IMG/VR virus record: IMGVR_UViG_3300038393_001148
DNA: 64,000 bases
From: a virus
Taxonomy: Duplodnaviria; Heunggongvirae; Uroviricota; Caudoviricetes
Direction: 5' to 3' (one strand)
The notes beneath the pieces are model-generated. The model was not told the origin of the DNA and ran no database searches. It worked only from the letters and a program-made list of their open reading frames with translations. Both the position numbers and the translations under genes were made by a program. Below are positions 11,122 to 50,100 of the stretch, in pieces. Each line of letters opens with the position of its first letter. The first letter of the stretch is position 1.

Positions 11122-11131
11122 GCTTGTCACC

Positions 11132-14115: not shown

Positions 14116-14116
14116 T

Positions 14117-15121
14117 ATGGAGGTTGCGGAGTATTTCGCCGCAATGTCTAATAAGCTGGAGTTTAACCATACGCAAAGGGCAGGCTGGGCGACGGATTTT
14201 AAGAATCTCGACCATCTTCCCTTTCAGGTGGCATCCCATCGCGGAGATGGTTATTGCTATGCGCTCTGCCATGAAGAGCACTTTGTAGCGCTTTACTATC
14301 TCAGCAACGGGACCGTTTGGCTTACCGTTGCTGCTCGAACTGCCGACCATCTTAGTAACTTCCAAAGTCTCAAGGATGCTGTGCCTGAGGCTAAGCACGA
14401 AGATGATCGCGTGGTATTCAAGTTCTGGGTCCAGACGCAGAACGGCCCAAGCAACTCAAACCGCAAGCTCGAAGCCCCAACCTGGGACGAGATCCGCGAT
14501 AACTACTCTGGGCTTATTCTTCCCGAGCTTGACACCCTTATGCAGGCTAAGGATGGCGAGGAGCTACGGGATGGGCGACTGCATCTCTGGCGTGGTGCTC
14601 CGGGAACCGGGAAGACCTACGCCATCCGAGCGATGGCCCGCGCCTGGCAGGATTGGTGCGATTTCCATTTCGTAGTGGACCCCGACCAGTTTTTTGGGCA
14701 CGGAGCCGACTACATGATGAAGGTCATCATGAGTGGGAGCGAGGACCGCTGGAAGATCTTGGTATTGGAGGACTCTGGCGAGTTGCTTGCCGCCGACGCG
14801 AAGCAACAAGCAGGCCAAGGGCTTTCCCGCTTGCTCAACGTGGTAGACGGGGTTCTCGGCCAAGGCCTGAAGCTAATGGTTCTGGTGACCACGAACGAGG
14901 ATCTTCAGGTTCTCCACGAAGCCGTCACGAGGAACGGGCGCTGCGCGTCCTGTCTCGCCTTCGATCCGCTGACGGGGCAGGAGGCCCGCGAGTGGCTTCG
15001 CGCCCGCGACTATAAGGGCGCAGTCCCAAGTCGGGAGGCCTCGGTATCTGAGCTTTATGCCATCCTCAAGGGTGAAGAACTAGAAACACAGAGCCCACGG
15101 AAAGCTATCGGCTTCGCCTAG
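14117..15121 (+). CDS. Classical-clade AAA+ ATPase
   Basis: Walker A GAPGTGKT and Walker B ILVLEDSGE are read in the translation. The LLNVVDG and VLVTTNEDLQ...RNGR sensor/arginine-finger region also matches. Track ORF 13919..15121, with the start taken after the upstream stop (an alternative start is at 14075). Confidence 0.7.
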   Translation: MEVAEYFAAMSNKLEFNHTQRAGWATDFKNLDHLPFQVASHRGDGYCYALCHEEHFVALYYLSNGTVWLTVAARTADHLSNFQSLKDAVPEAKHEDDRVVFKFWVQTQNGPSNSNRKLEAPTWDEIRDNYSGLILPELDTLMQAKDGEELRDGRLHLWRGAPGTGKTYAIRAMARAWQDWCDFHFVVDPDQFFGHGADYMMKVIMSGSEDRWKILVLEDSGELLAADAKQQAGQGLSRLLNVVDGVLGQGLKLMVLVTTNEDLQVLHEAVTRNGRCASCLAFDPLTGQEAREWLRARDYKGAVPSREASVSELYAILKGEELETQSPRKAIGFA

Positions 15122-36600: not shown

Positions 36601-37158
36601 ATGGCGAGCGGATCAAAGACAATTGTCTCGCCAGGATCCACCACCTACAGCAAGACCGGTAGGGCTGTCACCGACCTCACGGCCACGGGCAATGTGAATC
36701 TGGTCAAGACCACGACCGGAATCAGCGTCAGCGCGTTCGCAGCGAGCGGTGTTAAGTCGCTCACCTACACCAAGGTCGGAAGTGGTATTTCCGCATTTGC
36801 AGCCAAGGGTCCGGATTCATTTACGCGCCTGAAGACTGGTGCCGGTGAAGCTGGCATGCGTGCCAGCGGAATGCCTGCGTACGTCTATCATAAGTCTGGA
36901 CTCGGGGCCTCAGATATGCTCGGATCTGGCCTGGCAAGCACAGCCCCGATCACCGTCTCGACCAAGAGCGGAACGGCCATGTTGGCGCGGAGCGTGTCTA
37001 GCCCATCCGTCAAGAAGCATCTCGTTATCACCTATTACGATGGAGCCCTTTACATCCAAACCATCCCACGACTCCATCGCGGAGGCGACGATGTAATCCG
37101 CTCGTACGACGAGAAATATGTCTTGAAACCCGCATATACCGTCACCACCGAAACGTAA
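33646..37158 (+). CDS. BNR/Asp-box (sialidase-like beta-propeller) protein with a C-terminal array of about 18-aa tandem repeats. Putative receptor-binding or glycan-degrading fibre.
   Basis: Four Asp-box matches to S-x-D-x-G-x-T-W are read in the translation: STDFGRTW, SDDGGSTW, SDDNGITW and SSNEGVTW. More than 20 repeats of the form TKSG-G-S-F-ASG-K follow. Confidence 0.65.
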   Translation: MPQAAYDSAVLALSGLNNYWKLTETSGTSFTDSKGSNALAAAASPSRTTGPDGTASAINVAATTNSVMVAGTNFAFPKDHTVFYWMKLNSQSAGDMMAFEWATSSFTNYVQSDIGYSSVTGKSVFSAYYGTVTGAAAELCDRSTFGTGTWVFVAITTDTTLGNTNETKLYVNGVHVGTASAGFHQTQTPGSGALGVGGRAQGGRGLPLDGALNGVGILGRVMTTTEMTTLYQRMTGKIAVNQVSELETALPISVSHSGRILVEDWSGDPNGWNHNAFPGMVRSTDGSTLILGYQHQDQHQGTAGTVRIRRIDTQNGSTIGSPFDIRTVLVADPDTNLADISLWRMSNGEIGILWNESSTPGTANINTVVTYKAAFSSNEGVTWGTPITITTFPFVTNGAGTAGAYGIAPTPPIELAAGTVLKNGSTVATTTQLAAVYGYDDKTIPGTASAPGYVKVYKSTDFGRTWSSLSTPFPASTTTYDSDETALRLLNNGQILSMSRTAYYPTGRGNGTAYVQRAVTSDDGGSTWTTPIHALGSGVVGQVGYGGRPDLIQTPNGVLFARCRVMSTTGTSSYPSYRRSDDNGITWSAGRDPWDLALERTTSPDTDGTTRGVDVYSASAQLLGSNDTIAFIWAEERQTGTTPPNKAAIYYRTLVLRTQAISQPVETDVAMPIKAVKTRSIGQAIETDVATVIPRITSVKSGKGVIGRSPLVFVESGSGVSTFVGSGPKSVSTTKSGAGISSLTASGVKVFNSVTYSKAGIAIVGRGPITFAPTGSGVSTFSASGTKTLGSSVIAKTGAGVTAFSASGVKFYSGLSVTYTKSGSAGLGHLQVISPKTGVGVLQSIASGSSFKTDASIIKSGGGRGGTGTPTGWLLLLSNARGFSASGVKIFTSVSQETATAASLFSGSGVKSISFTKSGSGITNFTAAGPRISQTIRTGRGISPRVVSGSRIILRTKSGAAASDLIASGPRLANLNKTGLGALVPMASGSKTIVSPGSTTYSKTGRAVTDLTATGNVNLVKTTTGISVSAFAASGVKSLTYTKVGSGISAFAAKGPDSFTRLKTGAGEAGMRASGMPAYVYHKSGLGASDMLGSGLASTAPITVSTKSGTAMLARSVSSPSVKKHLVITYYDGALYIQTIPRLHRGGDDVIRSYDEKYVLKPAYTVTTET
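35740..36990 (+). repeat. In-frame coding tandem repeats of about 54 bp (the KSGxGxSxxxASGxK array) within 33646..37158
   Basis: The repeat is read in the translation. It is not a CRISPR array because there are no spacer-like unique segments and it lies inside a continuous ORF. Confidence 0.6.
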
Positions 37159-37167
37159 TAGGCGACC

Positions 37168-38013
37168 ATGCCTTTAGGATACGACGGAGATCAGAGGATC
37201 CTCAACATTGGGGATACGGCAGAATTGTATGCATACCTTTATGATAAGGAGGATGCGCCAGAATCCCCTGACGAGATTCTTGCCGTCTCCTTCATCATCC
37301 AAAAGCCCAACGGAGACCTTTTCACCATTGAGGGCGAGGTGGGGGATGATAACTCCGGGTACCTTCAATTCACCGACACGGATATCGAAGGCAGCTATGT
37401 AGTCGTAGCTCAGTTTACATTGGGCAACGGGTCGATCAAATCAATTCGCAGCGACTTCATTATCGAGAACCCGTTCGCTCCAGATATCCTAACGCTGGAA
37501 GATGAGGTCTCAACTCGCGTTTGGAGGAAGCTCGAAGATCTCTTCGACTCAAGCGACGGCGGGCCGTGGATGAGGGATATGACCCTGGCAGTTTTCAGCC
37601 CATCCCGAGTACAGAATTTCATCGAAGAAGCCTTGTTCGATATTAACGTCTATAACCCGCCCACCCATTTCAACATCGACAAGTTCGCTACGCCGATCAA
37701 TAACAATCCCAACCCGGATATTACCCTCCTGGTGCAGGGAACGCTCATAGCGGTCATCCGCCATCTCATGCGGAGCTACACGGAGCAGCCGTTGCCAACC
37801 GGAGGACAGGTCACGTATGAAGATCGTAGGGATTACTTACAGCGCTGGGGGACGATTTATCAAATCGAGTTCCAGCACTATGACCACCTCGTGAAGATGT
37901 GGAAGAGACAGTTCCTCGGCCTGAATACGTCCAAGCAGCTTATCTCCAACAAATCCGGACGCAACCTTCCCGCTCCTCTGCGTACGCGCGGCATCAATCG
38001 AGGCTACTACTGA
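37168..38013 (+). CDS. Hypothetical structural protein (281 aa)
   Basis: Track ORF. Confidence 0.5.
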   Translation: MPLGYDGDQRILNIGDTAELYAYLYDKEDAPESPDEILAVSFIIQKPNGDLFTIEGEVGDDNSGYLQFTDTDIEGSYVVVAQFTLGNGSIKSIRSDFIIENPFAPDILTLEDEVSTRVWRKLEDLFDSSDGGPWMRDMTLAVFSPSRVQNFIEEALFDINVYNPPTHFNIDKFATPINNNPNPDITLLVQGTLIAVIRHLMRSYTEQPLPTGGQVTYEDRRDYLQRWGTIYQIEFQHYDHLVKMWKRQFLGLNTSKQLISNKSGRNLPAPLRTRGINRGYY

Positions 38014-38726
38014 TGCCGATTTTTATTGGCCGCAGATCCACACGGTTTGTTGGCGAGCCCAACGTCCCTCGGGATGTGGCTCGCCGTCGTCGCTCTACGT
38101 CCGAAATGCTGCACCGGATGGGTACTCCGATGGTCATCAAGCATCGATACAACGATGTCGATTTTCAAAACGGCGAGGCAGTCAAATCTCCCGTCTACGA
38201 CTCGGTTTACGAACAGACTCGCAACCATGACCCTATCTCTCATGGCGTCGGGTATGTCGGAATCGAGCTATCGGACAACGAGTGGTATGACGCCAACGGC
38301 GAGATCGTCGTATCCGAAATAAGTCCTGGTGCGGGCTGGATCCAAGCTCCGAAATATCGCGGGTATGGGCCAGGAACCTTGACCTACATCATCGAGCCGG
38401 ATCGAGCCGAAGACTTCTACAAGTCCACGGTCGGAGGCCCCATCTTCCAGGTACAGAGCGCGCTAGCTATCGCTCCTTGGTGGCCCAACATCAACGACAA
38501 TGACTTGCTCATCAACGTCACGCTGGCGGCAAACGGCGACATCCTCGAAACCCACGAGCGATTTGAAGCTAAGAACGTCAACCCGGTGTCGATGCGAGGG
38601 CTGGATCGGAGAGGCCGCAAGGAGTATGGAGAGTCGTTTGGAAACAGCCATGTGATCAACCAGACCTTCGAGATGGCGCTGATCCCTACCAACGACGTGC
38701 TCTACGAAGTAGAGGTAGATCGCTGA
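38013..38726 (+). CDS. Hypothetical structural protein
   Basis: Track ORF 37899..38726. The Met at 38013 overlaps the upstream stop (TGATG). Confidence 0.5.
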   Translation: MPIFIGRRSTRFVGEPNVPRDVARRRRSTSEMLHRMGTPMVIKHRYNDVDFQNGEAVKSPVYDSVYEQTRNHDPISHGVGYVGIELSDNEWYDANGEIVVSEISPGAGWIQAPKYRGYGPGTLTYIIEPDRAEDFYKSTVGGPIFQVQSALAIAPWWPNINDNDLLINVTLAANGDILETHERFEAKNVNPVSMRGLDRRGRKEYGESFGNSHVINQTFEMALIPTNDVLYEVEVDR

Positions 38727-39088
38727 TGTATGACGACTACCCAGTTAAGCAGCTAGCTTATCAAACAATTCTCGGCGCGGCTGTGGAATTCGCCAACGCC
38801 GACACCCGCAAACCTTACTATCTCGGCGGGGATATTTTTCACACACCCAACACCTTCGATCACTTAGAGCTTCGTTACGACCCGGATCTCGTAAAGTATG
38901 CGATTCAGGACGCTATCGCCCGTCATGGCGAAGTCCGCTCAGAAGAGGAAATCTACCGGCTCTTGGTCGAGATCGTTCGGGATGCCGTTGCGGAAGCGAT
39001 CAAGCACGACCGGGAGTCCGCCGAAGCCTTTTCTGCGTTGATCGTCCATCAGACCCGCAATCAAACCTCTCCCGAATCTTGGTTTTAA
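38726..39088 (+). CDS. Hypothetical neck or head-tail joining protein (120 aa)
   Basis: Track ORF. The call is positional only. Confidence 0.45.
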   Translation: MYDDYPVKQLAYQTILGAAVEFANADTRKPYYLGGDIFHTPNTFDHLELRYDPDLVKYAIQDAIARHGEVRSEEEIYRLLVEIVRDAVAEAIKHDRESAEAFSALIVHQTRNQTSPESWF

Positions 39089-39864
39089 TGCCTCTACTTC
39101 CTGAGCGGACCATCCCCTACAAGAGCTACGTTAAGGCGGCGATAGTCGAGGCTCTGCGAGAAGTCTTTCTCAACCACCCCGATTCGAAGCTCCGGAAAAC
39201 GAAGGTCTCCATCGAGTTTCCCACATCTCAACTTAGTTATCCGGCCATAGTTGTACGCTTCGTAGAGCGTTCTATAGAGAACGCGGGCGTGGGTCATGTG
39301 GAGTTCCTATTCGTGGAGTCAGACGATCCCGTGGCCTTTAAATTCCGCCATTATCTCTACCACGGAGACATTGAATTCGGTGTATATGCGCTGTCGTCGC
39401 TGGATCGAGACCTTATCTCCGACACGCTCGTCCAAACTCTGTCAATGCCGGATATGGCCGAGTACACCGAGAACTTCTTCTCGCGTATCTACTACCCCAT
39501 CAATATCGAAGCCGATCCTAATGGCGCTCCGGGGAGCGACGAGGACCCGCGCAACAAGCACCGCTGGAACTACCTCAACCTGAACACGGACAGGCTCTCC
39601 CCTATGGGAGAGACGCAGACGCCTCAGCCCTGGCTCTCAGAAGACCAACTTGTATACCAATCATCTTACCGGGTCGGAATCATGGGCGAGTTCTATAGCC
39701 TGCCACCTGAAGAAGCGATTGATGGATTCGGAACGGTTCAGAAGGTCAATGTCTATCCTTACCTAGATGGCCTAGAGTCAAGGCCGGAAGGCACGCCAGA
39801 TTCTTCTAGTTGGTCACAAGCAGATAACGCCTACGACGCCAGTCGTGGGGAGTATGACGTGTAA
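39079..39864 (+). CDS. Hypothetical neck or tail-completion protein (261 aa)
   Basis: Track ORF. The call is positional only. Confidence 0.45.
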   Translation: MVLMPLLPERTIPYKSYVKAAIVEALREVFLNHPDSKLRKTKVSIEFPTSQLSYPAIVVRFVERSIENAGVGHVEFLFVESDDPVAFKFRHYLYHGDIEFGVYALSSLDRDLISDTLVQTLSMPDMAEYTENFFSRIYYPINIEADPNGAPGSDEDPRNKHRWNYLNLNTDRLSPMGETQTPQPWLSEDQLVYQSSYRVGIMGEFYSLPPEEAIDGFGTVQKVNVYPYLDGLESRPEGTPDSSSWSQADNAYDASRGEYDV

Positions 39865-39906
39865 CTACAAAAAGCTTGGACGCAACAGGGATAATAATCG
39901 AGAACT

Positions 39907-41409
39907 ATGGCCTCTGCTTACACACCCCCTGGCGTTTACGTCCAAGAGTTATTTTCGCCATCCGTCAATACCATCCTAGCTACTTCAGCCCAGGTCTGCC
40001 TTGTGGGCTTGGCGCAGGGGTATCAGCTAAAGACGGCGCAGCTTACCTTCCCGGCCTCGGGGACGGCCCAAACGATCTCGGCTCCAGCCGGATCCATCTT
40101 CCAAAAGGTTGACACCAACACCTCGTTCGAGAAGGTCCGAGATCTCGTTGACCCGACTGCGGGCACCAACGGTGTCTATGCTGAAGGCGCTGATTTCACC
40201 GCAACGCTATCCAGCGACAAGCTGACCTTTACAATCACGCCGGTCAATGGATCGGGCCTAAAGACCAACGGCGGCGTCCTCGCATTTACCTTCCGCCACG
40301 TTCCCGAGAAGTACTTTGTTGCTACCCGGCTCGACACCCTTGCGGCAGTCGAGGATCGCTACGGCGCAGCCTTCGACACCAGCGGAATCCTGACCCCGCT
40401 CACCGCTGCGGCTACCATCGCCTTTGAAAACGGCGCGCAGAACGTCGTGGTCCAGCCGCTCTTCGAGGTAGACACCGATGCCAATGGCAACGTCACCCGT
40501 CGTCAGCCTGATTCCGGCGACGTTAACGCTTTTGCGACCTTCCAGACCACGCTAGTCGGGCTTCGAGACATCGAAGACATCAACGTGGTCGTCCCGATTT
40601 TCCCATCGGGATTGAACGCTGCCGCTCAACTTCAGCTTATTGAAGCTGCACAGGATCACGTCCGCTATCAGGCGGCCCAGGGACAACTACTTGTCGTCAT
40701 TGCTGGAGAGGATAGTGTGCTCCAGTCAGAGCTACAGGGTCATGCGGCGGCTCTCCGCACTCGTGGAGACACCGAGGCCGAGGCAACTGTGCTGGTATCC
40801 CCCGCACGATTTGGCCGGACCCTTCCTTCTACCGGGGCCAGCATCGTGGTTGGTGGTCAGTATGCCGCAGCAGCTATTGCGGGAATGCTTGCTGCCCGCC
40901 CGGTCTCTACCCCGCTCACCCGCAAGCAGCTATCGGGCTTCCAGACCGTTGAGGATCCCCGCGACAAGGCAGCGAAGGACGCTGACGCTGCCGCAGGTCT
41001 CATGGTTGTTGAGCAGAAGGGCGCTGTCCTCCAGGTCCGCCATGCGCTGACGGTGGATAACACGGCAACAGCACGTCGTGAACTCTCAGTGGTGAGATCC
41101 AAGCACCGGATGATCGACTCGATCCGAAACACGATTGATACGCAGATCATCGGCAACGTGCCTGCGGACGGCAATGCCCCGTTCACCGTGAAGAACGCGG
41201 TGATCGGAGTCCTTGAGGCGCTGCGCTCACGTCGAGACCTTGTGGACTACAAGGGGGTCCAGGCTCGCGTTCTCGCGTCCGATCCGACCACCGTTGAGGT
41301 TCGATTCTCTTACCTCCCAGCGTTCCCACTCAACTACGTCACGATTATCTTCTCGCTGGACTTGACGGATAACACACTAACTACTACAACAACTACGGCT
41401 GCCGTCTAG
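39907..41409 (+). CDS. Tail sheath protein
   Basis: The N-terminus MASAYTPPGVYVQE matches the hallmark (Y.TPGVY.EE) of contractile sheath proteins. At 500 aa it has the right size, and it is followed by a tube-sized gene. Confidence 0.7.
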   Translation: MASAYTPPGVYVQELFSPSVNTILATSAQVCLVGLAQGYQLKTAQLTFPASGTAQTISAPAGSIFQKVDTNTSFEKVRDLVDPTAGTNGVYAEGADFTATLSSDKLTFTITPVNGSGLKTNGGVLAFTFRHVPEKYFVATRLDTLAAVEDRYGAAFDTSGILTPLTAAATIAFENGAQNVVVQPLFEVDTDANGNVTRRQPDSGDVNAFATFQTTLVGLRDIEDINVVVPIFPSGLNAAAQLQLIEAAQDHVRYQAAQGQLLVVIAGEDSVLQSELQGHAAALRTRGDTEAEATVLVSPARFGRTLPSTGASIVVGGQYAAAAIAGMLAARPVSTPLTRKQLSGFQTVEDPRDKAAKDADAAAGLMVVEQKGAVLQVRHALTVDNTATARRELSVVRSKHRMIDSIRNTIDTQIIGNVPADGNAPFTVKNAVIGVLEALRSRRDLVDYKGVQARVLASDPTTVEVRFSYLPAFPLNYVTIIFSLDLTDNTLTTTTTTAAV

Positions 41410-41422
41410 GTAAGAAATAGCA

Positions 41423-42007
41423 ATGGCTGACTCGATTTCAGGTTACTCTCGCGACGTTAGCGGCGCGCGTACCCGTACAGGCGGTTCGGGCTTTACCGCC
41501 TTCTTCTGGCGCTCAAAGCCTATCGGATTTTGCCGACAGATCGCTCACGTTTCTCCGACTCCGGTCGGTCCTGGTCCTACGCCGATCCATCCTTTGGACG
41601 AGCCGTATGCGCTGGAAATCATTACCCCTGCGGCACAGAATCCTGGAACGCTCACGCTTGAGCTTTACGAGTTGTACAACCACAAGGTCTGGGATCACCT
41701 ATCGCTGATCGCAGGCTCGGTTGACCTTGTAAACATTTTTATTGCGGTGGCGGCAGAGACGGATCCGATCACCGTTGTTAAGCTTATTTCTCCTCCGACG
41801 ATTCGTGGCGTGAAGCCATCTCCATATGCGGAGCGCTTCCACAACTGCATTATCTCCAATGTGGAGGACGGGGAGACCATCGAAGTTGGGACAATGGAAG
41901 TCACCAAGCGCATTACAGTCATGTATACGCACATCACGCGAGACGGCGCTGACGCCAACCAGGCGATTGCGCTCCGTGATGGGCGTTCTCTCCCAGTCAA
42001 GTCTTAG
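41423..42007 (+). CDS. Putative tail tube protein (194 aa)
   Basis: It lies immediately downstream of the sheath gene and is of appropriate size. Confidence 0.5.
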   Translation: MADSISGYSRDVSGARTRTGGSGFTAFFWRSKPIGFCRQIAHVSPTPVGPGPTPIHPLDEPYALEIITPAAQNPGTLTLELYELYNHKVWDHLSLIAGSVDLVNIFIAVAAETDPITVVKLISPPTIRGVKPSPYAERFHNCIISNVEDGETIEVGTMEVTKRITVMYTHITRDGADANQAIALRDGRSLPVKS

Positions 42008-42013
42008 TTAAAA

Positions 42014-42568
42014 TTGCCCGTCCCATTTGATGAGTTTCCTCCAGAAGTAGCTCAGTCCGTCGAAGGCCTCATGTGGCTTGGGCATCTCGAAGCCCATGTT
42101 TCTAAATGGGGTCACAACTGGGTTCTACGCACGCTACGTGCGGACGAAGAGCTAGTCGCCTCCCTGATCGCCAAGGAATATCAGGACTCCTTGGGTCAGG
42201 TCAAGGCGTATGCCTGGGCACACCTGGCAGCGGCTATCGTTGCCGTCGATGGCGACGATAACTACTGTCCATCCATCGGGCCGAACATCCAAGATAATGT
42301 TCGGGCTAAATTCAACTGGATGACCGAGAACTGGTACTGGCCTATCGGAGAGTTCCTATTCGGTCACTACACCGAGCTACTCTCCAAACAGGCCGAGGCG
42401 CTGGACGCCGTAGATTCTTTATCACAACGGAGTCTGCGGACCTCTTGGCCCTCGCGAGACTCCTTGAACGAACAGGGCGACTCTCTGGAAACCTCAACCG
42501 AGTCCAACTCAGGCTTGTCGCCTATCTCATCCGAGCAGATGAAGACGCTCGCGGACAAGCCCGAGTAG
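42014..42568 (+). CDS. Putative tail assembly chaperone (184 aa)
   Basis: It lies between the tube and tape measure genes. Its 3' end overlaps a -1-frame ORF. Confidence 0.4.
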   Translation: MPVPFDEFPPEVAQSVEGLMWLGHLEAHVSKWGHNWVLRTLRADEELVASLIAKEYQDSLGQVKAYAWAHLAAAIVAVDGDDNYCPSIGPNIQDNVRAKFNWMTENWYWPIGEFLFGHYTELLSKQAEALDAVDSLSQRSLRTSWPSRDSLNEQGDSLETSTESNSGLSPISSEQMKTLADKPE

Positions 42569-42726
42569 ACCAATTTAAGGATCATCTCCTCGCAACCCAT
42601 CCGGATATCTACGCCCAGGTCTATGGCGAAGAAGATAATCCGGAAGAGGAAATCATCGAGGAGATCCCTCAGACAGAAGCCGATGTCGAACGTATGATGG
42701 CCGAGCTAGCTCGGCTCGGTGTCTGA
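42445..42726 (+). CDS. The -1-frame extension ORF. It is a candidate frameshift-fused chaperone C-terminus (G/GT-like) or an independent small acidic protein.
   Basis: Its frame is -1 relative to 42014..42568, and there is no in-frame ATG after 42568 until near the end. I found no canonical X-XXY-YYZ slippery heptamer in the overlap. Confidence 0.3.
   Translation: MALARLLERTGRLSGNLNRVQLRLVAYLIRADEDARGQARVDQFKDHLLATHPDIYAQVYGEEDNPEEEIIEEIPQTEADVERMMAELARLGV
42701..42716. terminator. Perfect 16-bp palindrome GCCGAGCTAGCTCGGC between convergent genes. It could be a bidirectional terminator or an operator.
   Basis: Read directly. Confidence 0.4.
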
Positions 42727-42867
42727 TTTGACGGCCGTATATGCGGTCAAGGTCAGGACAACGCCTATAAGCAGCATGGACAACGCCAAGTAGATGTCGC
42801 CCCACCACCACGCCTGACTGAGCGCCGTCACGCAGCCACAGATCCAGCCCGCGATTAGAAGTCGCAT
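42708..42867 (-). CDS. 53-aa two-TM membrane peptide (MRLLIAGWICGCVTALSQAWWWGDIYLALSMLLIGVVLTLTAYTAVK...). Last gene of the antisense cassette.
   Basis: Hand translation. Its start is embedded in the 3' end of 42855..43037. Confidence 0.35.
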
Positions 42868-43037
42868 GGCTCCCCGGTCTTAGCAGCGGCGCTGTCAAGC
42901 AGGTTTTGCAGGCCCTCGGCGAGGTCCTGGTGGCCGTCAGCCCGCAGCGCCGCCACGTTCTTCGCGCCCTCGCGGAGCGCATTGGCGCGCTGCTCGTCCG
43001 TAAGCGGGCTGTCGCTTCGCTGGGAAGGCGATGACAT
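42855..43037 (-). CDS. Hypothetical 60-aa helical protein
   Basis: Track ORF. Confidence 0.35.
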   Translation of the reverse strand: MSSPSQRSDSPLTDEQRANALREGAKNVAALRADGHQDLAEGLQNLLDSAAAKTGEPCDF

Positions 43038-43130
43038 CTAGGAGCGCCCCGCCAGCCACAGACAGCCAGCAGCCAGCATCAGGTTCGGTACCGCCAACAC
43101 CACGGCGACGATCAGATCGCTCGTCATCAT
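43035..43130 (-). CDS. About 30-aa hydrophobic peptide (MMTSDLIVAVVLAVPNLMLAAGCLWLAGRS)
   Basis: Hand translation. Its ATG overlaps the stop of the HTH gene (ATGATGA). Confidence 0.3.
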
Positions 43131-43432
43131 GCGTTCTCTCCTGTCTGGGTTCTCGGTCGCTTTCCGGTCTTTACGCTCGTGTCCGGGAGCCAGTCCTTGG
43201 GGTCGTAGCCCATCGCCTTGAGGTAACGCTCAGCCCGCAGACGATTCATGCTCAAGTTTCGCGCCTCGTAGCGCACCGTCTCGCCAGCGGCGTTCGCCTT
43301 GAACTGGGGCGAGATCCGCTGGGTGCTCACGACACGGCCGACGCTGGAGTGATGAACGTTCAAGCGGCGGGCAAGCTCGCGGATGCTGAGGCCAGACTCG
43401 TGAAACGCGCGGCGGATCGCCTCGACCGGCAC
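43127..43432 (-). CDS. Helix-turn-helix DNA-binding regulator (101 aa)
   Basis: The motif LSIRELARRLNVHHSSVGRVV is a classic HTH. The gene is transcribed antisense to the flanking tail genes. Confidence 0.55.
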   Translation of the reverse strand: MPVEAIRRAFHESGLSIRELARRLNVHHSSVGRVVSTQRISPQFKANAAGETVRYEARNLSMNRLRAERYLKAMGYDPKDWLPDTSVKTGKRPRTQTGENA

Positions 43433-43568
43433 GCTCTCTCATGCAAGACCCGTGGGGTAGCCACCGGCCGTGTGGTTTGGGTCTGGGGTTACGTAGCTAT
43501 CGGATTGCTGGGAATCCATCAGACTCACCAGGGAGACCCATTGTGATTGGAGCCGTAGTAGGGAAGCT

Positions 43569-43588
43569 TATCGAGGATCCACTCGATA
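43569..43588. promoter_or_regulatory. 20-bp palindrome TATCGAG-GATCCA-CTCGATA in the divergent region between the HTH gene and the tape measure gene. Candidate operator.
   Basis: Read directly. It lies about 135 bp upstream of the HTH gene start. Confidence 0.4.
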
Positions 43589-43666
43589 GGCCTGAAAATA
43601 AAATCGATCATAGGCGGTAGTATACCCTTGTTTGCCCTTTTGTCAAGTCCGGTCACATAAGATTCG

Positions 43667-45871
43667 ATGGCAGAAGAGAATGATCCTGGCAGCATCAGAG
43701 TACAGCTAAGCCTTCTTTCGGCCCAGGATACCCAGGCCGCGCAGCAGCTTGCCGCCTCCCTTGGAGAAATCTCCAAGATGTTCCAGGCGCTTAAGGCTAC
43801 CGACTTTCAGGACACGGCCAAGAAGATGGGCCAACTGCATGCTCAGATGGTCCGTGATACCGAGCGTCTTCAACAGCAACAGCAACAACTTATGAGCGGC
43901 GGTGGAGCTTCAACCATCGACAAAGTTAAGGGTTTCTTTGGGCGGGGGAAGTCGGACGAGACTATTGCGGATAACTTGCGCGATACGGCACGGCAAAACC
44001 GAGACGAAGCTGCCAGAAAAGAGGAAGAGCGCAAGGAGCGCGAGCGCGTCCGCATTGAGAATCTTACCGAGCAACAGCACAGGGCAGATCAGATGCGTCG
44101 GGCTGCCAAGCTTCCCAATGTAGGTGAAGGGAATTATATGAAGGACGGCAAAGAGGTTATTCCCTGGTTCAACCGCATCGAGCCTCTTGTCGGCGAACCA
44201 ACGGGCTTCCGTATTCCCCGCTTCGGTGAACTTAACGCGCAGGACTACTTTAACATCCTCCGCGACAGCCGAATGAAGAAGGCGCTTGAGGCGCAGAGCG
44301 CAGGAGATATTGCCGGGGCTGACCGGATTGGTGGTCAGGCCGCCCGCCTCCAGCAAGTGTCAGATATCGTCGGATATGGATATGCCGCGCGGAACCTCTT
44401 CCAGCGCGCCGGGAACTATATGGCGGGTCAGGGATTCAGCATTCGAGGGATGCGAGATGCCGGATCCGCTCTTGGGTTCCGTAGGGACTCGAACGCCCTC
44501 TCCGACATCTTTGGCATGCAGACTCCCTTCTCCCAAGCCGGAGCGGAAGGCTTCCGTCAGTCTATGGATATTCAAAGACTGCGCTTTTCGGCAGGAATCA
44601 ATAAGGAACAGGCCGCACAGATTGTGTCTGCCTCGGCAGCGGCCGGGTTCTCAGGCGGTGCTCGTCAGGACATCGCCACCCAATTCATGGGACCTCTCTT
44701 CCGCCAGTTTGGCGTAGACCCGCAAAACCTCATTCCCTTTACCCAAGTCCTGCGCACGGGAACGGCTAGCGTCCAAGACCTACATAAGGAGCTTGCCAGC
44801 TTGGGCGAAACCGCTAGAGCCGCAAGGCTTGATGTCAATGCCATGGCGCAAGCCCTCGCCCAGTCGGGAGAGGCCGCTCAAGCAGCGGGAGGCAACTACA
44901 TGTCCGGCGTGAGCTTCGGACGCCAGTTTTCCACCGCCTATGGCCTATCTCCAAACGTGGGCAATCAATTACTCCAGAATCCCTTTGTCCAGGCACAGCT
45001 AGGCGCGAGCACAGGGTTGCCAGCGTTTGCGCAGGCGTCTCTTCCAGGCTCGGTAAAGAGTCAGGCACTTTCCGCCTCAGCCAAAATGCTCTATCGAGCC
45101 TTCGCGGGCTCCTTAGGGACCCAAGGAAGACGGGTAGCGATCAAAGACGCCCAAGGCAACACCATCGGTTACGAGACTGGAGCCAATCCCGCGATGGCTG
45201 CCGCAGCTTCGCAGCTTGGAATGAATGCGGACGAGCTTCAAAAACTCCTCAATGGTCAAGACTTCGGCAGTCGCATGGGCGCGGCGCAGTCTGCTGTCAA
45301 TGCCTATAACGATGCCGGGGCGGCGATGTCTAACCGATCAGATGCGGGCCTGCGCTGGGCGCACTCCCAGGGCTATCGGGTCAATGCACAGGGCGAAGTC
45401 CTTGCCCCAATGAGCGTCGGATCCGGGCGCGGCTCGTCAGGAGGGATCCGATGGCGTGTCAACAGGGGCTTGACGGAGGAAATGCAGAAGCGTTCTTCGG
45501 CTACGGCGATGGATATCTTGAGTGGCAACGGTGGGGCACACGTCGGATGGGACGAAGTAGCCAAATTGGCGCGTCAAGCGGGAGTATCTGCCGATGACCT
45601 CAAGGAGGCTCACGGTAAGAAAACCATCAAGGCTCAGGTTGAGGAGGTCCGCCGCCTACTTGGCGACAAGTCTGCCGAGCAACAGGCTCAAGCGCTGGTC
45701 GCCTTCACCGGCCCCGCCGCGAAGTTCTTCAAGGCGCTGGTCAACAAGAATGGCGGTTGGGACCAATTCGGCGGACAGCCAAACGCCCTAGCCGCCTCGT
45801 CGTCTGGACCATCTCCTCTCAGCAATCAAGGGAACTCTGGCCTTAGCGGCTTTGACACCCCCGGTCCATAA
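43667..45871 (+). CDS. Putative tape measure protein (734 aa)
   Basis: It follows the tube and chaperone genes. It has a Q-rich coiled-coil N-terminus and is Ala/Gly-rich and long. Confidence 0.55.
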   Translation: MAEENDPGSIRVQLSLLSAQDTQAAQQLAASLGEISKMFQALKATDFQDTAKKMGQLHAQMVRDTERLQQQQQQLMSGGGASTIDKVKGFFGRGKSDETIADNLRDTARQNRDEAARKEEERKERERVRIENLTEQQHRADQMRRAAKLPNVGEGNYMKDGKEVIPWFNRIEPLVGEPTGFRIPRFGELNAQDYFNILRDSRMKKALEAQSAGDIAGADRIGGQAARLQQVSDIVGYGYAARNLFQRAGNYMAGQGFSIRGMRDAGSALGFRRDSNALSDIFGMQTPFSQAGAEGFRQSMDIQRLRFSAGINKEQAAQIVSASAAAGFSGGARQDIATQFMGPLFRQFGVDPQNLIPFTQVLRTGTASVQDLHKELASLGETARAARLDVNAMAQALAQSGEAAQAAGGNYMSGVSFGRQFSTAYGLSPNVGNQLLQNPFVQAQLGASTGLPAFAQASLPGSVKSQALSASAKMLYRAFAGSLGTQGRRVAIKDAQGNTIGYETGANPAMAAAASQLGMNADELQKLLNGQDFGSRMGAAQSAVNAYNDAGAAMSNRSDAGLRWAHSQGYRVNAQGEVLAPMSVGSGRGSSGGIRWRVNRGLTEEMQKRSSATAMDILSGNGGAHVGWDEVAKLARQAGVSADDLKEAHGKKTIKAQVEEVRRLLGDKSAEQQAQALVAFTGPAAKFFKALVNKNGGWDQFGGQPNALAASSSGPSPLSNQGNSGLSGFDTPGP

Positions 45872-46659
45872 TGTCTCATAGCCTTATCTTTTCTCATCCT
45901 GACGTAGATGCGGATATCGGATCCCTGACGATAACGACCGGCATGAACCGCGTAAGCTGGGCATACAACTTGAACACCCAGGCGTATCCGACATACGCGG
46001 GAGAGGTCGTGCAAATACTATCATGTAATATCGACAATCTTCAAATTGAAGGAGATGTCCGGTCGTACGCAGAAATGGAGGCCATCTATCGATGGTTCCT
46101 CCTCTACATGCAGAAGGCCACCCAGGGTGCGGGAGGAGACTCGTATGTGGAAAAGGCGGTTAAGCTGGAATACCCTCATCGAGGATGGACGATGTTTATT
46201 AAGCCGATCCAACTCCCAGCGCTGCGCTATGGCCGAGATGTCGTCGTCCCTTCCTGGTCGATGCAGGCGCACGTCGTTAACCCTGATCCAGAACAAGCAG
46301 AACTTAGTATTGATAATGCTGTCGGAGTCGCAGGACAGATCGAGAACTTCGAAGCTCGCGTCAGCGCCGATATCGGCTTCCGTCGAAGCAACCCATTTTC
46401 CGACCCACTGGCAACGATTACCCAAGAAGAGAACAAGCTCTACCCCGGAGCCAGTGATATTGCAGGGATCAAGGTCCAGGGATCTGGTCAGGCGGCTGGA
46501 GACCTTGGTGTGGCTCTCCAGGGTCTTGCCAAGCAGATGCAGAGTATGTTCGAGGCCCTGATGAGCGGCGATGTCAAGGACTTGATCCAGTCCTCAGATG
46601 TTGGGAGTAAGCCAGCGACCTCCACAGGCTCATCGTCAGAGCAGACTAAGACGCCTTAG
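45871..46659 (+). CDS. Putative distal tail or baseplate hub-associated protein (262 aa)
   Basis: The call is positional. Its start overlaps the tape measure stop (ATAATG). Confidence 0.45.
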   Translation: MSHSLIFSHPDVDADIGSLTITTGMNRVSWAYNLNTQAYPTYAGEVVQILSCNIDNLQIEGDVRSYAEMEAIYRWFLLYMQKATQGAGGDSYVEKAVKLEYPHRGWTMFIKPIQLPALRYGRDVVVPSWSMQAHVVNPDPEQAELSIDNAVGVAGQIENFEARVSADIGFRRSNPFSDPLATITQEENKLYPGASDIAGIKVQGSGQAAGDLGVALQGLAKQMQSMFEALMSGDVKDLIQSSDVGSKPATSTGSSSEQTKTP

Positions 46660-46690
46660 GAAACCACTTGCGCCGTCAGGTAATACCTGC

Positions 46691-47425
46691 ATGGCAGCCT
46701 GGCAATATAACTTCCCCGGAGAAACAGCCCCGGTCGTCGGCACCGACCAAGGGTACTACGTTAATCACCCTAACGTTCCGACTCGCTATACCGCGAACGC
46801 CGACAACAGCATCGGCTATCTAGAGGACCAGGACGGAAAGCGCCTGCACCTGTGGATTACGGACATTGAGATGAACTTCCAGGTCTCTGGACAATACGCT
46901 CAGTCCCACCGCTATCGGCAATGGTATCCGCGCAACTTCGTCCAGCCTCGGGTGATGATCCAGGGCCAGGTTGCAAATGAAGCCGATTACGGAAACCTTG
47001 CAGAGTTTATCCGCATCACCCAACGCAAGGCGCTGAGGTGGGCAAGTGCGGATGACCATATGTGGTCTACCAACCTTCATATTTCATCGGGCGGTATACA
47101 GAACCACCGGCGTCAAGGGCACTCACTTAACGGCCATATTCTCAACATCCAGCGTACGGCCGAGCGATGGGTTAATGCTCCCACGTTCCAGTTCGAATTC
47201 GTCGTCGTGACCGCAGCCGCAGGCCTATATCACACCCAAAGTACGGATGCCTCTGGAGCTAAGAATAAGATTGCTAAGTACATGGATCCGATGGCGCAGC
47301 AGGTGAACAACACGGCGCGCAACGGTCAGTCCATCGACTGGATACGAGATCCCGATAACGGTCCGGCCGGACAAGGCGGAAGCGGAGTAGCGGGCTATAG
47401 CAAGGGCGAAGGGAAGCCGGACTAA
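46691..47425 (+). CDS. Putative baseplate or tail protein
   Basis: Track ORF 46598..47425. The first Met after the upstream stop is preferred. Confidence 0.45.
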   Translation: MAAWQYNFPGETAPVVGTDQGYYVNHPNVPTRYTANADNSIGYLEDQDGKRLHLWITDIEMNFQVSGQYAQSHRYRQWYPRNFVQPRVMIQGQVANEADYGNLAEFIRITQRKALRWASADDHMWSTNLHISSGGIQNHRRQGHSLNGHILNIQRTAERWVNAPTFQFEFVVVTAAAGLYHTQSTDASGAKNKIAKYMDPMAQQVNNTARNGQSIDWIRDPDNGPAGQGGSGVAGYSKGEGKPD

Positions 47426-50100
47426 TGCGGCGATTGGTGTACAGCCCCAAAGCATATGTCTACATTCAAACCGACTCCGGGACCTACAACATCTCGGACT
47501 TGGTGGTATCCGGAAGCGTTCATCGAAAGGTCAATCAGGTTAGCACCGCCGAGGTTACCTTCCAGAATCCAAACCGTACCTTCACGCAACCGGGCAATCC
47601 GACGTTTCGCCCGATGGACAAGATTACGATCTTCCTTCAGCGGCTTCCGGGGTTCCCGGTCCAGTCGTTCACGGGGTACTTGGATCAGACGCCGTACTAT
47701 CAGATGTACCCAGGTACATGTACGCTTCGCGCCTCTTGTACGTTGAAGCGTCTTCAGTATACGTATTTCGATCCGGGACTACCATTCGTCATCAACTTCC
47801 TGGCACGCTATGGCTGGCTTACGGATGGTAACGGGACGATCCAGAATCCGAAAAAGCCCGGTACCAAGCCCGTCGATGAGGCCCAGGCAGCACAGTCGGC
47901 GTCCATGGCAGACCTAATGTTCGCCTCCCTCAAGCACATCGCCGGATGGGACCCCGACCTGATCTTCATCGAACAGCTTCCAACTTCGCTGACGGATCGA
48001 ATCCACGAAATCTACTTCGCCCTCCACGAGAGCGCCGATGCCGCATCGGAAGATTTCAAACAATGGCTGAAGGACTACATCGGCGCAGGGTCGGTAGGCG
48101 GTGGCGGAACGGCTCCTTCGGGGACGCCTTCCGGACCTGTCAAAGAACTTAAGAATATCGTTCCTATCGTCGTTGACGCAGCCGAAAAGAATGGCATACC
48201 AGCGGAGCTACCCCTCGCCGTTATTGGTCTGGAGACGGGCTACGGGGTCAACATGCACAACCCTCGCTCTGACGCCAATGGATGGTTTCAATGGACTCGT
48301 GGTTCATTCGGCCCGTCAGAGAACGCGGGCTGCCCCGGATCCTGGGCAAAGTGCGGGCATCCGGCCACTCTGAAGTACTCAGATAACGACGACCTTGGGA
48401 TTGCCTCAAACGGCTTCGCGTACGCAGCCAAGTTGGCCGCTAATAAGAATCCATCCTTCAGGCGCAACCTCCAAGAATGGGCAATGTATATTCAGGGAGT
48501 CACCCTGAGTAACAACCCGCTCTACGGCACGTTTAACGCTGAGGTAGAAAAGGCTAAGGGCTATATCTCGTCCTATGGCGGTACCAGCGCGAAGGCCAAG
48601 GCGTCCTCGGTAGAAGATCAGCAAAAGGGCGGCAAGGAGGGCGTGGATACGCAGACCAAATCTGGAGATCCCGCCGCCACAAGCGACCCTTCTCAGACTA
48701 AGAGCGTGACAATCTATGCACCGATCAAGGGCAACGTTCACTACGGTCGTGGATGGCATCAGGCGACCGAGGGCGGTCCTATTGAGCAGACCAGTACTTC
48801 GGGACATATCCACTGGCACTCTGGCATAGACGCTGGGGTACCGGCTGGCACGCCGTGTATCGCACCATGCGATGGAGAAATCACCCTCTCGACTCCCACA
48901 TGGTCGGACGGAGGAATGATCCATTTTAAGTTCACCGAGCAAACGGGAGACATCAACGCTGGCACGATCATCGGTTGGGGCCACGTCCAAGCAACGGGCC
49001 TGCACCCCGTTGGTAAGGTGAAGGGCGGAACACAAATCGCCCTCAGTGGCAATCCGGGTGGTGGGCCTCACGTCCACTTCATCCAGCGAAACGACGGAAC
49101 GGACGGCACCGGGGACGGCAATACCGACCCCTTGTCATTGTTGAAGGCCTTGCAGAAGGGCGAAACGGCTCCGACCGACGCCTCGGATCCGGGTTCCGGT
49201 GGCCCGGACTCCACCGGCTTTGGAGACGCCCTAGCGGCGGCTAAGACTGCATCGGTCTTTACCACACTGAATTTCCCCCAGGCCGTCTCAGCGGCCGAAT
49301 CTCTCGTGTTGCGCGGCGACGATGCGCGTGGTCGATCATTGATGAACGATCAGCCACTACTTCCATTTATCGAGCAACTAGCCAAGGGTTCGTTGCGGTC
49401 ATTCATGACCTTGCCTAACGGAGATTTCTTTTCCTTCCACCCAGATTATTTTGGAGCCTTCAACACCGCTCCTTACTGGGAGATTGATGACATCGAAGTC
49501 CTTGAAGGCAATATCGACCTCACGGACGAGGCGCTGATCACCCACGTCTTCGTGACCGGGGCTACGCTGCCGAGCCAGCAGATCGACATCACCCGAAAGC
49601 TAAACACCCATGGCGTAGTGAATGTCCTGAACGCGGGGACGGCTGATTTCCTGAATACCGACCCCAAGGAGGCCAAGAAGACCAACGAGCAGGGCGACAC
49701 TAAGGAGAAGGACTTGACCCCGTTCCTGGGCTCGATAGACGCCTCTATCGCATTCCTGACCCGCTACGGCACGCGGCCTTATGTCGAGGATGCTCCGTTC
49801 ATCCGCTCCCATATCTTTGAGACCTTCTACGCCTACCAGACATTTATGTTGGCCTGGGCGAGGCAGTTCATGACGACCTTTAGCTTCACCTTTATGCCGG
49901 AGATATACCCCGGAGGGCTAGTGAAGTTTAAGGATCACGATATCCAGATGTACGTAGACGAAGTACACCATTCCTGGGATTACTCGTCGGGCTTCACCAC
50001 CCAAGCCAATCTCTCGGCTCCTTCTTCCACCGGAACGAACAAGAGCATCTCAAGAGGCATGGTCCGCGCGATGAGCCAGAAGGGTCTAGGGGATCAGTGA
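47425..50100 (+). CDS. Tail-associated lysin with lytic transglycosylase (SLT-like) and M23 peptidase-like domains (891 aa)
   Basis: The SLT-like segment is ...AVIGLETGYGVNMHNPRSDANGWFQW.... The M23-like segment is HIHWHSGIDAG...GGPHVHF (HxxxD...HxH). Confidence 0.65.
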   Translation: MRRLVYSPKAYVYIQTDSGTYNISDLVVSGSVHRKVNQVSTAEVTFQNPNRTFTQPGNPTFRPMDKITIFLQRLPGFPVQSFTGYLDQTPYYQMYPGTCTLRASCTLKRLQYTYFDPGLPFVINFLARYGWLTDGNGTIQNPKKPGTKPVDEAQAAQSASMADLMFASLKHIAGWDPDLIFIEQLPTSLTDRIHEIYFALHESADAASEDFKQWLKDYIGAGSVGGGGTAPSGTPSGPVKELKNIVPIVVDAAEKNGIPAELPLAVIGLETGYGVNMHNPRSDANGWFQWTRGSFGPSENAGCPGSWAKCGHPATLKYSDNDDLGIASNGFAYAAKLAANKNPSFRRNLQEWAMYIQGVTLSNNPLYGTFNAEVEKAKGYISSYGGTSAKAKASSVEDQQKGGKEGVDTQTKSGDPAATSDPSQTKSVTIYAPIKGNVHYGRGWHQATEGGPIEQTSTSGHIHWHSGIDAGVPAGTPCIAPCDGEITLSTPTWSDGGMIHFKFTEQTGDINAGTIIGWGHVQATGLHPVGKVKGGTQIALSGNPGGGPHVHFIQRNDGTDGTGDGNTDPLSLLKALQKGETAPTDASDPGSGGPDSTGFGDALAAAKTASVFTTLNFPQAVSAAESLVLRGDDARGRSLMNDQPLLPFIEQLAKGSLRSFMTLPNGDFFSFHPDYFGAFNTAPYWEIDDIEVLEGNIDLTDEALITHVFVTGATLPSQQIDITRKLNTHGVVNVLNAGTADFLNTDPKEAKKTNEQGDTKEKDLTPFLGSIDASIAFLTRYGTRPYVEDAPFIRSHIFETFYAYQTFMLAWARQFMTTFSFTFMPEIYPGGLVKFKDHDIQMYVDEVHHSWDYSSGFTTQANLSAPSSTGTNKSISRGMVRAMSQKGLGDQ

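Follow-up and report, generated by a model that had tools for sequence, protein, structure and literature searches.

The IMG/VR virus record IMGVR_UViG_3300038393_001148 comes from a large uncultured myovirus of ~165 kb with no close cultured relative. We analysed a 64-kb stretch of its DNA (the window), to which scans, palindrome counts and promoter counts refer unless stated otherwise. Between the tail-assembly chaperone gene and the tape-measure gene lies a unit of five genes that reads leftward, antisense to the tail operon: a micro-ORF (open reading frame) of 28 aa, a gene for an Xre-like helix-turn-helix (HTH) protein, and three small ORFs, p30, p60 and p53 (Table 1). An initial annotation, made from the letters alone, had placed a four-gene antisense cassette at this position. 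The position is confirmed, with the chaperone recognized by phrog_2792 and the tape-measure gene by synteny and size, and all four minus-strand ORFs exist and run leftward. However, the ends given for two of them were 2–3 nt off, the HTH ORF at 43127-43432 is only the distal part of a 130-codon gene, and the unit starts further right, with a fifth gene, the micro-ORF, and a promoter that had been overlooked.

Table 1. Features of the antisense unit, of the neighbouring tail genes and of the equivalent junction in relatives
Feature	Coordinates	Strand	Remarks
Sigma-70-type promoter TTGACA, 16 nt, TATACT	43619..43646	-	11/12 consensus match; -10 ends 7 nt before ATG 43611
Micro-ORF MIDFIFRPIEWILDKLPYYGSNHNGSPW, 28 aa	43525..43611	-	First gene of the antisense unit; stop 5 nt before HTH gene ATG (43519)
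Xre-like HTH gene	43519-43127	-	130 codons in other assemblies; split here by TGA 43441-43439
Nonsense SNP	43441		A here, G in three other assemblies; minus strand CGA (Arg27) > TGA
p30, 30 aa, single-pass hydrophobic peptide	43038..43130	-	ATGA overlap with HTH gene; AGGAG 8 nt upstream; GC3 0.84
p60, 60 aa, acidic, soluble	42855..43037	-	Abuts p30 stop as TAGATG; GC3 0.80
p53, 53 aa, two hydrophobic segments	42706..42867	-	GGGGAG 3 nt before ATG; GC3 0.78
GC-rich insert (HTH gene, p30, p60, p53), ~0.8 kb	42727..43524	-	Between stops of chaperone extension and micro-ORF
Inverted repeat GCTTATCGAG-N6-CTCGATAGGC	43566..43591		Inside micro-ORF, codons IEWILDKL
Perfect 16-bp palindrome GCCGAGCTAGCTCGGC	42700..42715		At convergent gene ends; contains p53 stop codon
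Tail-assembly chaperone (G-like), 184 aa	42014..42568	+	phrog_2792 'tail assembly chaperone', E 7e-11; left neighbour
Probable -1 frameshift site T TCT TTA	42415..42421	+	Conserved block GATTCTTTATC in window, L009, L013, L010
Chaperone -1 frame extension (GT-like)	42421..42726	+	Last 21 nt overlap p53 3′ end
Probable tape-measure gene, 734 aa	43667..45871	+	Right neighbour; start 55 nt from antisense ATG
Other TTGACA-17-TAnnnT promoters	2768-2988, 3997, 6714, 7621, 11096	+	-10 ends 6-7 nt before ATG
Other TTGACA-17-TAnnnT promoters	22723, 29391	-	-10 ends 6-7 nt before ATG
L009 junction		-	41-aa micro-ORF
L015-17 junction		-	45-aa micro-ORF
L018 junction		-	111 aa, same C-terminal motif as micro-ORF
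L007 junction		-	85 aa, one hydrophobic segment
L010 junction		-	135-aa membrane protein and 92-aa ORF
L013, L014 junction		-	195 aa, hydrophobic segments and Cys-rich tail
L117/L020	NZ_AUEK01000007.1 343775-352308		Listed in IMG/VR as 152.6-kb viral region

A GC-rich block of four reading frames

The part of the unit that follows the micro-ORF differs sharply in composition from its surroundings. The insert has a GC content of 63.7%, compared with 55.2% for the window, and GC along 42650-43550 is 61-68%, compared with ~53-56% in both flanks. GC at third codon positions (GC3) is 0.78-0.84 in the four ORFs but 0.60-0.65 in the sheath, tube, chaperone and tape-measure genes, and in a sliding frame plot the frame changes exactly where one ORF gives way to the next, less clearly in the 3′ part of p60. 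The base composition of the block is foreign; moreover, the high GC3 and a frame plot that follows the called frames together support all four reading frames. The coupling of p30 to the HTH gene through an overlapping ATG, as first annotated, is borne out, and the small ORFs are packed equally tightly, p60 and p53 overlapping by 13 nt. A Kyte-Doolittle script likewise bears out the hydrophobic character ascribed to p30 (one segment; GRAVY 1.47) and finds two hydrophobic segments in p53, to which two transmembrane segments had been ascribed. Two further ORFs were rejected as genes, one on the plus strand (43031-43546, 171 aa) and one on the minus strand (42653-42982, 109 aa): each has a GC3 of 0.58 and mirrors the HTH gene and the small ORFs. 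A search of 41000-45000 against Rfam gave no match.

The three small ORFs resemble nothing in the collections that we searched. The concatenated p30, p60 and p53 sequences found nothing at E<=10 among 5.8 billion proteins, and no family in Pfam, PHROG, NCBIfam or PADLOC rose above noise for any of them; p60 has neither a homologue nor a family match, and p53 has sub-threshold matches only (phrog_22388 'membrane protein', E 0.002; holin PF07332, E 0.015). p30 is annotated as a gene in L003-L005, three independent assemblies of the same phage. Given that the copies of the p30/p60/p53 region are identical and hence carry no comparative signal, it is composition that supports these ORFs being real. 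At its 3′ end, p53 extends over ~5 codons into native chaperone-extension sequence, to which it is antisense.

Relatives of the phage, found by a search with its tube protein, define the limits of the block. The loci collected include 15 from IMG/VR and 80 from metagenomes, and the block is absent from L009, L015, L007, L010, L013 and L018. In L009 and L015, only 186-197 bp lie between the chaperone extension and the tape-measure gene, with the micro-ORF alone inside and the two convergent stops 1-2 nt apart. The chaperone extensions of relatives are two codons longer than that of the window, which places the boundary of the insert at ~42724-42727.

DNA similarity to contigs L001 and L002, which carry homologues of the HTH gene, is limited to that gene (43507-43187), with none over p30, p60 or p53. 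In both contigs the HTH gene lies within a run of small co-oriented genes, with different neighbours and without p30, p60 and p53, and the contigs that carry HTH homologues have 66-67% GC. A second window ORF, 12184-12564 on the plus strand (126 aa, 63% GC), encodes a protein with 94% identity to the product of L001 194-574. Since L001 carries both an HTH homologue and this 94%-identical gene, the donor-like lineage would be a related phage, at 66-67% GC, and the likeness at 12184-12564 is a second sign of exchange with a higher-GC relative.

A putative regulator gene with a nonsense allele

The HTH assignment made initially is confirmed by Pfam HTH_38, which scores above its curated cut-off of 27 bits with both the 101-aa ORF (28.3 bits) and the 130-aa protein (27.3 bits); HTH_31 and HTH_3 also match. 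In the window the gene is split into a 26-aa N-terminal peptide and the 101-aa ORF 43432-43127, which would restart at GTG. The homologues P0002 and P0003 (85-87% identity) have ~30 extra N-terminal residues, and the window encodes the same residues in frame upstream of the GTG, cut off by the TGA. In a DNA alignment the codon at this site is CGC in L001 and L002 and CGA in L003, L004 and L005. Position 43441 is the sole difference between the window and the last three assemblies across 12.6 kb (35423-48007), and with G at that position they have an intact 130-aa gene, so the allele in the window is a nonsense one. No tRNA gene turned up in a scan of the window, which makes a suppressor tRNA or recoding an unlikely explanation of the TGA, and we rejected it. 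The GTG lies 9 nt downstream of the TGA, and a restart there would keep the whole HTH domain.

The nonsense SNP bears on the possibility that the block is decaying passenger DNA, that is, a recent recombination scar in which the HTH gene is becoming a pseudogene and p30, p60 and p53 are chance ORFs. The small ORFs have no homologues, p53 ends in flanking native sequence, and GC-rich DNA yields long chance ORFs on both strands, all of which suits this explanation. However, the HTH gene is intact in three other assemblies that are otherwise identical over the 12.6 kb compared, and its core, in which synonymous and non-synonymous codon differences between lineages number 21:11 and 31:12, is under purifying selection. 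The four frames, in addition, have the GC3 periodicity of real genes, ribosome-binding sites and translational coupling, and the GTG restart retains the HTH domain. We consider decay an unlikely account of the block, although for its ORFan part it is possible.

The HTH family is very small. Among 1.84 billion representative proteins there are 22 matches at E<=1e-3 and only two full-length relatives at E<=1e-10; the longer proteins among the matches align only via repeated short HTH stretches, and the remote small members have in common an N-terminal HTH and a C-terminal ...AMGxDPxD... helix. An AlphaFold model, with a mean pLDDT of only 61, has a three-helix bundle, a beta-hairpin and two helices, and the protein looks like an Xre-type domain with an inserted hairpin. 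Foldseek gave no match to this model in the PDB below E 0.03, and generic regulators only. PADLOC and NCBIfam scans of the cassette proteins returned only sub-threshold generic HTH matches, and an exact-sequence look-up found neither the window HTH protein nor P0001 on record. P0001 bears the JGI name IS30 transposase, which we rejected: at 101/130 aa, only the N-terminal HTH_38 matches and there is no DDE catalytic domain. The protein is like the small Xre/Cro-type HTH regulators of phages in its HTH domain, with homologues in arrays of small co-oriented genes; it differs from them in that its family is tiny and has no specific structural match.

A regulator followed by a short hydrophobic peptide could also be read as a toxin–antitoxin-like pair, as the initial annotation had suggested. 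The HTH protein would then be an antitoxin and autorepressor of the Xre/HigA type, and p30, perhaps also p53, a membrane-damaging toxin that stabilizes the phage or aborts infection. The order of the genes, with the HTH gene first and an ATGA overlap with a small hydrophobic ORF, fits such a pair, as does weak similarity to the Xre-like antitoxin HTH PF20432 and to HigA (TIGR02607, E 6e-4). Yet PF20432 scores 25.4 bits against a cut-off of 25.8, and TIGR02607 scores 19.7-20.6 against 47.7. The pair is not a conserved one, the L001 and L002 homologues lying beside unrelated genes and never beside p30; p30 and p53 match no toxin family, and PADLOC finds nothing above noise. Furthermore, RNA, rather than an HTH protein, is the usual means of control for peptide toxins this small. 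We regard a toxin–antitoxin function as improbable, and this part of the initial annotation is not borne out.

A predicted leaderless promoter and a conserved micro-ORF

The promoter and the micro-ORF that precede the block set the unit in a different light. Given that the -10 element ends 7 nt before the ATG of the micro-ORF, the transcription start site is placed on the ATG itself, and a leaderless mRNA is predicted. No promoter-like site was found inside the inserted block. The C-terminal motif of the micro-ORF, PYYG(S/D)NH(N/H)GSPW*, recurs at the same place of the junction in L009, L015-17 and L018, and within IMG/VR it was found only in a contig of this clade. Across four lineages, nearly all differences between the codons of the motif are at third positions, and the stop codon varies (TGA, TGA, TAA and TAG), which argues that the peptide is under selection.

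An operator had been proposed for the cassette in the form of a 20-bp palindrome upstream of the HTH gene. This element proves to be an inverted repeat with 7-nt arms and a 6-nt spacer, or with 10-nt arms and one mismatch if taken over 43566-43591, and it lies in the coding sequence of the micro-ORF. There are 70 inverted repeats of the same quality in the window, and a search for further copies gave two in the window, each with 3 mismatches, but none among the relatives' loci. The operator is thus not borne out: the repeat is coding and has no convincing second copy.

Promoters of the leaderless type are not confined to the junction. The window holds nine promoter/ATG pairs of this layout, compared with 0-2 in shuffled sequence, and the best two, at the junction and at 2768, both match the consensus at 11/12 positions. 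Five of the pairs lie in the left third of the window, with ORF starts at 2803, 4032, 6750, 7656 and 11132, and a sixth precedes the ATG of a 183-aa minus-strand ORF at 22687. These counts suggest that leaderless genes are widespread in this phage. Leaderless translation is common in Actinomycetota. As promoters of this class serve mainly ORFs outside the tail operon, we infer that host RNA polymerase would express the antisense unit separately from the late tail operon. The initial proposal of expression independent of the late genes is a reasonable one in view of this near-consensus, host-type promoter, but the promoter is not the cassette's own. The promoter at 11096 would, separately, shift the start of an SPFH/Band-7 gene to the ATG at 11132.

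An antisense gene at the junction across the clade

Among the close relatives (tube protein identity 72-83%), all have minus-strand genes in the gap between the chaperone and tape-measure genes. The spacer that separates these genes from the tape-measure start is 49-59 bp long and holds CTTGACA-N16-18-TAnnnT, the rest of it being variable. The full layout, TTGACA-N16-18-TAnnnT-N6-7-ATG, is present in L009, L015, L007, L010, L013, L018 and L044. We then surveyed 48 non-redundant junctions with a strict test that demanded a promoter of at least 9/12, a start codon 5-8 nt after the -10 element and an ORF of at least 20 aa. The test was passed by 23 of the 48 junctions and by all eight with a tube identity of at least 61%, compared with 1.3% of random 300-nt windows from the same loci. 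In nine of the remaining junctions, a minus-strand ORF that encodes a hydrophobic segment adjoins the tape-measure gene; another has a non-membrane ORF of 107 aa, and two have an HNH endonuclease gene in the gap, including L076, where it lies alongside a two-segment membrane ORF. Altogether, ~35 of 46 ingroup junctions have an antisense gene. By comparison, two cultured outgroup phages, Rhodococcus phage E3 and Gordonia phage RedWattleHog, have no gap: their tape-measure gene follows the chaperone genes directly.

What the junctions carry is far less constant than the layout. The cargo belongs to many unrelated families, mostly membrane proteins, and Pfam and PHROGs scans of the relatives' cargo genes recognized nothing beyond HNH endonucleases. 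The HNH genes (Pfam HNH, E 1e-9 to 4e-11) are on the minus strand in the same gap in L031/L032/L076 (7807-8367), L027 and L112 (1278-1841); their presence in several distant relatives indicates that the gap also takes up mobile nuclease genes. In L028 (7571-7810, minus strand) and L083 (start 2639, minus strand), the junction proteins are otherwise unrelated but have the same ending, ...RAEGKNWL*, which parallels the ...GSPW* ending of the micro-ORF family; both endings lie beside convergent stops.

These comparisons change the view of the unit as a one-off insertion. The block itself is absent from the relatives, as such an insertion would be, but most junctions of the clade have an antisense gene at the same place, and the promoter belongs to this conserved antisense locus. 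Universal conservation with the tail genes, named at the outset as evidence against an insertion, is seen in half: the antisense gene is conserved clade-wide, whereas the cargo is not.

Given that the promoter and its distances to both start codons are far better conserved than the cargo, we considered whether the promoter itself is the conserved element. Leftward early transcription into the chaperone, tube and sheath genes might tune or delay the tail genes, as might RNA polymerase sitting 20 nt from the tape-measure start, and the ORFs would then matter little; there is also no convincing terminator to stop an antisense transcript. However, the codon-periodic conservation of the micro-ORF indicates selection on the peptide, the unrelated cargo proteins have membrane character in common, and conservation holds the ATG precisely on the predicted start site, where it is relevant only to translation. 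We consider this explanation rather unlikely, and slightly less probable than decay of the block.

The number of small membrane proteins at the junction raises a further possibility, that they are holin- or antiholin-like and set the timing of lysis. Many cargo proteins do have 1-3 hydrophobic segments and a charged C-terminus, and p53 weakly matches the holin family PF07332, but that match scores 15.8 bits against a cut-off of 28.4. No endolysin gene adjoins the unit, whose neighbours are the chaperone and tape-measure genes; a host-type leaderless promoter opposing the late operon is the opposite of holin regulation; and hydrophobicity is lacking in the micro-ORF family, which occupies the same position. 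Of the explanations set out here, lysis timing strikes us as the least probable.

One member of the clade hints at a host. L020, which is identical to L117 and has a tube protein of 53% identity, lies within a 603-kb scaffold of the actinobacterium Candidatus Solirubrobacter pratensis URHD0082. A clade member inside a Solirubrobacter scaffold indicates that lysogeny is possible in the group, and it fits leaderless translation. This locus also gives a possible host phylum and a culturable system.

Convergent gene ends and the search for a terminator

A terminator had been assigned to the cassette on the strength of the 16-bp palindrome at its end, the position of which we correct from 42701-42716 to 42700-42715. 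The window contains one perfect palindrome of this length, compared with 1.2 expected by chance. The palindrome GCCGAGCTAGCTCGGC codes for the residues AELARLG in the chaperone extension and is thus native sequence rather than cassette DNA. On the plus strand a weak T-run comes after it; on the minus strand there is none, and the relatives have no conserved terminator hairpin at the convergent gene ends. A terminator of the cassette's own is therefore not borne out.

Neighbouring genes and the rest of the window

The left neighbour of the unit, the chaperone, has 73% identity to its homologue in L009 and 28% (E 8e-8) to gp114 of Rhodococcus phage E3, which is annotated as a tail assembly chaperone. 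Its likely slip site is marked by the conserved block GAT TCT TTA TC; T TCT TTA is non-canonical, but in L018 the canonical A AAT TTA takes its place. The peptide in the -1 frame, FFITTESADLL..., is conserved starting at the slip site, and the C-terminal peptide of the extension, ...EADVERMMAELARLGV, aligns with the extensions in L009, L015, L007, L013 and L018. From these alignments, -1 frameshifting probably occurs here.

The right neighbour gave no match in Pfam or PHROG. We take it to be the tape-measure gene from its size and from its place after the chaperone gene, as in E3 and RedWattleHog; its product has 49% identity to the L009 homologue. Just upstream of its ATG (window 43650-43669), an alignment of relatives has a conserved stretch, …GTAAGTTGCG ATG, without a Shine-Dalgarno-like motif; the preceding gap is 190-940 bp.

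Other searches for relatives were largely fruitless. Megablast with 41400-46000 against GenBank phages and tblastn with the HTH protein against the same collection gave no match, and relatives were found neither in IMG/VR scans with the tape-measure and HTH proteins as queries nor in a metagenome scan with the sheath protein. The sheath protein (39907-41409) has at most 30% identity to the sheaths of Rhodococcus, Gordonia and Mycobacterium myoviruses, and the tube protein (41423-42007) matches phrog_2756 (E 1e-27). Other genes recognized in the window encode an SPFH/Band-7 protein (11096-12091), an AAA ATPase with DUF5925 (13919-15121), an 891-aa tail protein with an M23 peptidase domain (47425-50100) and an SNF2-type helicase (61140-63011, minus strand).

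Discussion

The unit that we describe invites comparison with the morons of lambdoid phages. By the definition given for HK97 and HK022 (Juhala et al. 2000, summarized in PMC3594210), a moron is extra DNA that is absent in relatives, has its own promoter and terminator, and is expressed from a repressed prophage. HK97 gene 15, the first moron described, occupies the gap between the genes for the chaperone and the tape measure, has a deviating GC content and brings a promoter and a terminator of its own; its product, a small protein of the inner membrane, blocks genome injection (PMC3594210). The block 42727-43524 is likewise extra DNA that relatives lack, and it differs in GC (63.7% versus 55.2%; GC3 78-84% versus 60-65%). 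An 11/12 promoter precedes the unit but is part of the conserved antisense locus rather than of the block, and the sole terminator candidate is the 16-bp palindrome in native coding sequence. Small putative membrane proteins, p30 and p53, do lie between the chaperone and tape-measure genes, their segments being predictions of a hydropathy script only.

The likeness to HK97 gene 15 therefore extends to position, extra DNA, a GC shift, a promoter independent of the late operon and small predicted inner-membrane proteins. The differences are also substantial: the window unit opposes the tail operon in direction and counts five genes, a regulator among them; the insert did not bring the promoter, which is conserved in the clade and is predicted to give a leaderless mRNA; and HK97 is a lambdoid temperate siphovirus, whereas the window phage is a ~165-kb myovirus. 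Family libraries and the search of 5.8 billion proteins gave no sign of homology to gp15/YebO, which were not compared directly. For an antisense gene between chaperone and tape-measure genes, our literature searches turned up nothing beyond HK97 gene 15, and they gave no account of a conserved antisense slot there. Of the initial reading of the locus as a moron or superinfection-exclusion insertion, the foreign antisense unit and the HK97 gene 15 position stand, but a private operator and terminator do not.

Two other exclusion systems are relevant. The llp gene of phage T5 is an early-expressed exclusion gene beside the receptor-binding protein gene, encoding a lipoprotein that blocks the outer-membrane receptor. 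It adjoins, and is divergent from, the structural gene whose entry step Llp blocks, so that a matching pair is inherited together. In the window, the antisense gene and the tape-measure gene likewise diverge, their starts lying 50-60 bp apart, but the unit has no lipobox, and its partner would be the tape-measure protein. Ltp of Streptococcus phage TP-J34 is encoded in a lysogeny module, not in the tail operon. It is an exclusion factor of the cell envelope whose target, as stated in the title of Bebeacua et al. 2013, cited in PMC3952083, is the tape-measure protein; to the extent of that statement, it supports the existence of exclusion linked to the tape measure. Ltp differs in being a lipoprotein and has no homology to the window unit.

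We favour, with modest confidence that it is the right account, the reading that this is a leftward, moron-like accessory operon whose antisense position is conserved, which host RNA polymerase transcribes and which probably serves superinfection exclusion at the membrane. Host RNA polymerase would start at the 43646-43619 promoter, and a start on the micro-ORF ATG would give a leaderless mRNA. The 0.8-kb GC-rich block would have been recombined in behind the micro-ORF from a higher-GC relative, adding the Xre-like HTH protein and three translationally coupled ORFan micro-proteins, predicted to be single-pass (p30), soluble (p60) and two-pass (p53). Expression of the unit would go with that of the early genes read by the host polymerase, or come from a prophage, and would run counter to late transcription of the tail genes; its products may act at the cytoplasmic membrane, blocking genome injection by competing phages as HK97 gp15 does. 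The HTH protein is probably a regulator of the unit itself or of other early genes. Exclusion is the most likely function in view of the position and size of the products, their membrane character and their rapid non-orthologous turnover.

Several observations weigh against this exclusion reading. In PADLOC, Pfam and PHROG scans, none of the cargo proteins matched an established family of exclusion or defence proteins. p30, p60 and p53 have no homologues, and any of them could be spurious; the micro-ORF family, which holds the first position in the unit, is not hydrophobic. The regulator bears a nonsense mutation in this copy, and we found no clear terminator for the antisense unit. Finally, Pfam scans, which covered ten large ORFs of the window only, found no integrase.

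A broader claim is possible, but we make it tentatively and hold it to be clearly less likely than the accessory-operon reading: that the clade, widespread in the metagenome and IMG/VR collections, keeps a dedicated antisense slot by the tape-measure gene with a host-type promoter and a leaderless mRNA, that the small membrane proteins swapped through this slot form a fast-evolving exclusion or immunity locus matched to the tape-measure protein, and that the cassette of the window is an expanded version of the slot with its own regulator. Taken alone, the cassette is a moron-like mosaic insertion of an ordinary kind; of greater interest is the conserved antisense slot that holds it. The junction of chaperone and tape-measure genes is normally among the tightest gene joins in tailed phages. 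This clade has opened it for a backward, independently promoted gene whose content changes faster than the flanking tail genes. In addition, the locus provides a clean signature by which bioinformatics could recognize leaderless early promoters in phages that are uncultured and probably actinobacterial. If the small proteins block injection, the junctions would amount to a catalogue of natural exclusion proteins paired with tape-measure genes, and such a catalogue would aid the study of how phage DNA crosses the cytoplasmic membrane.

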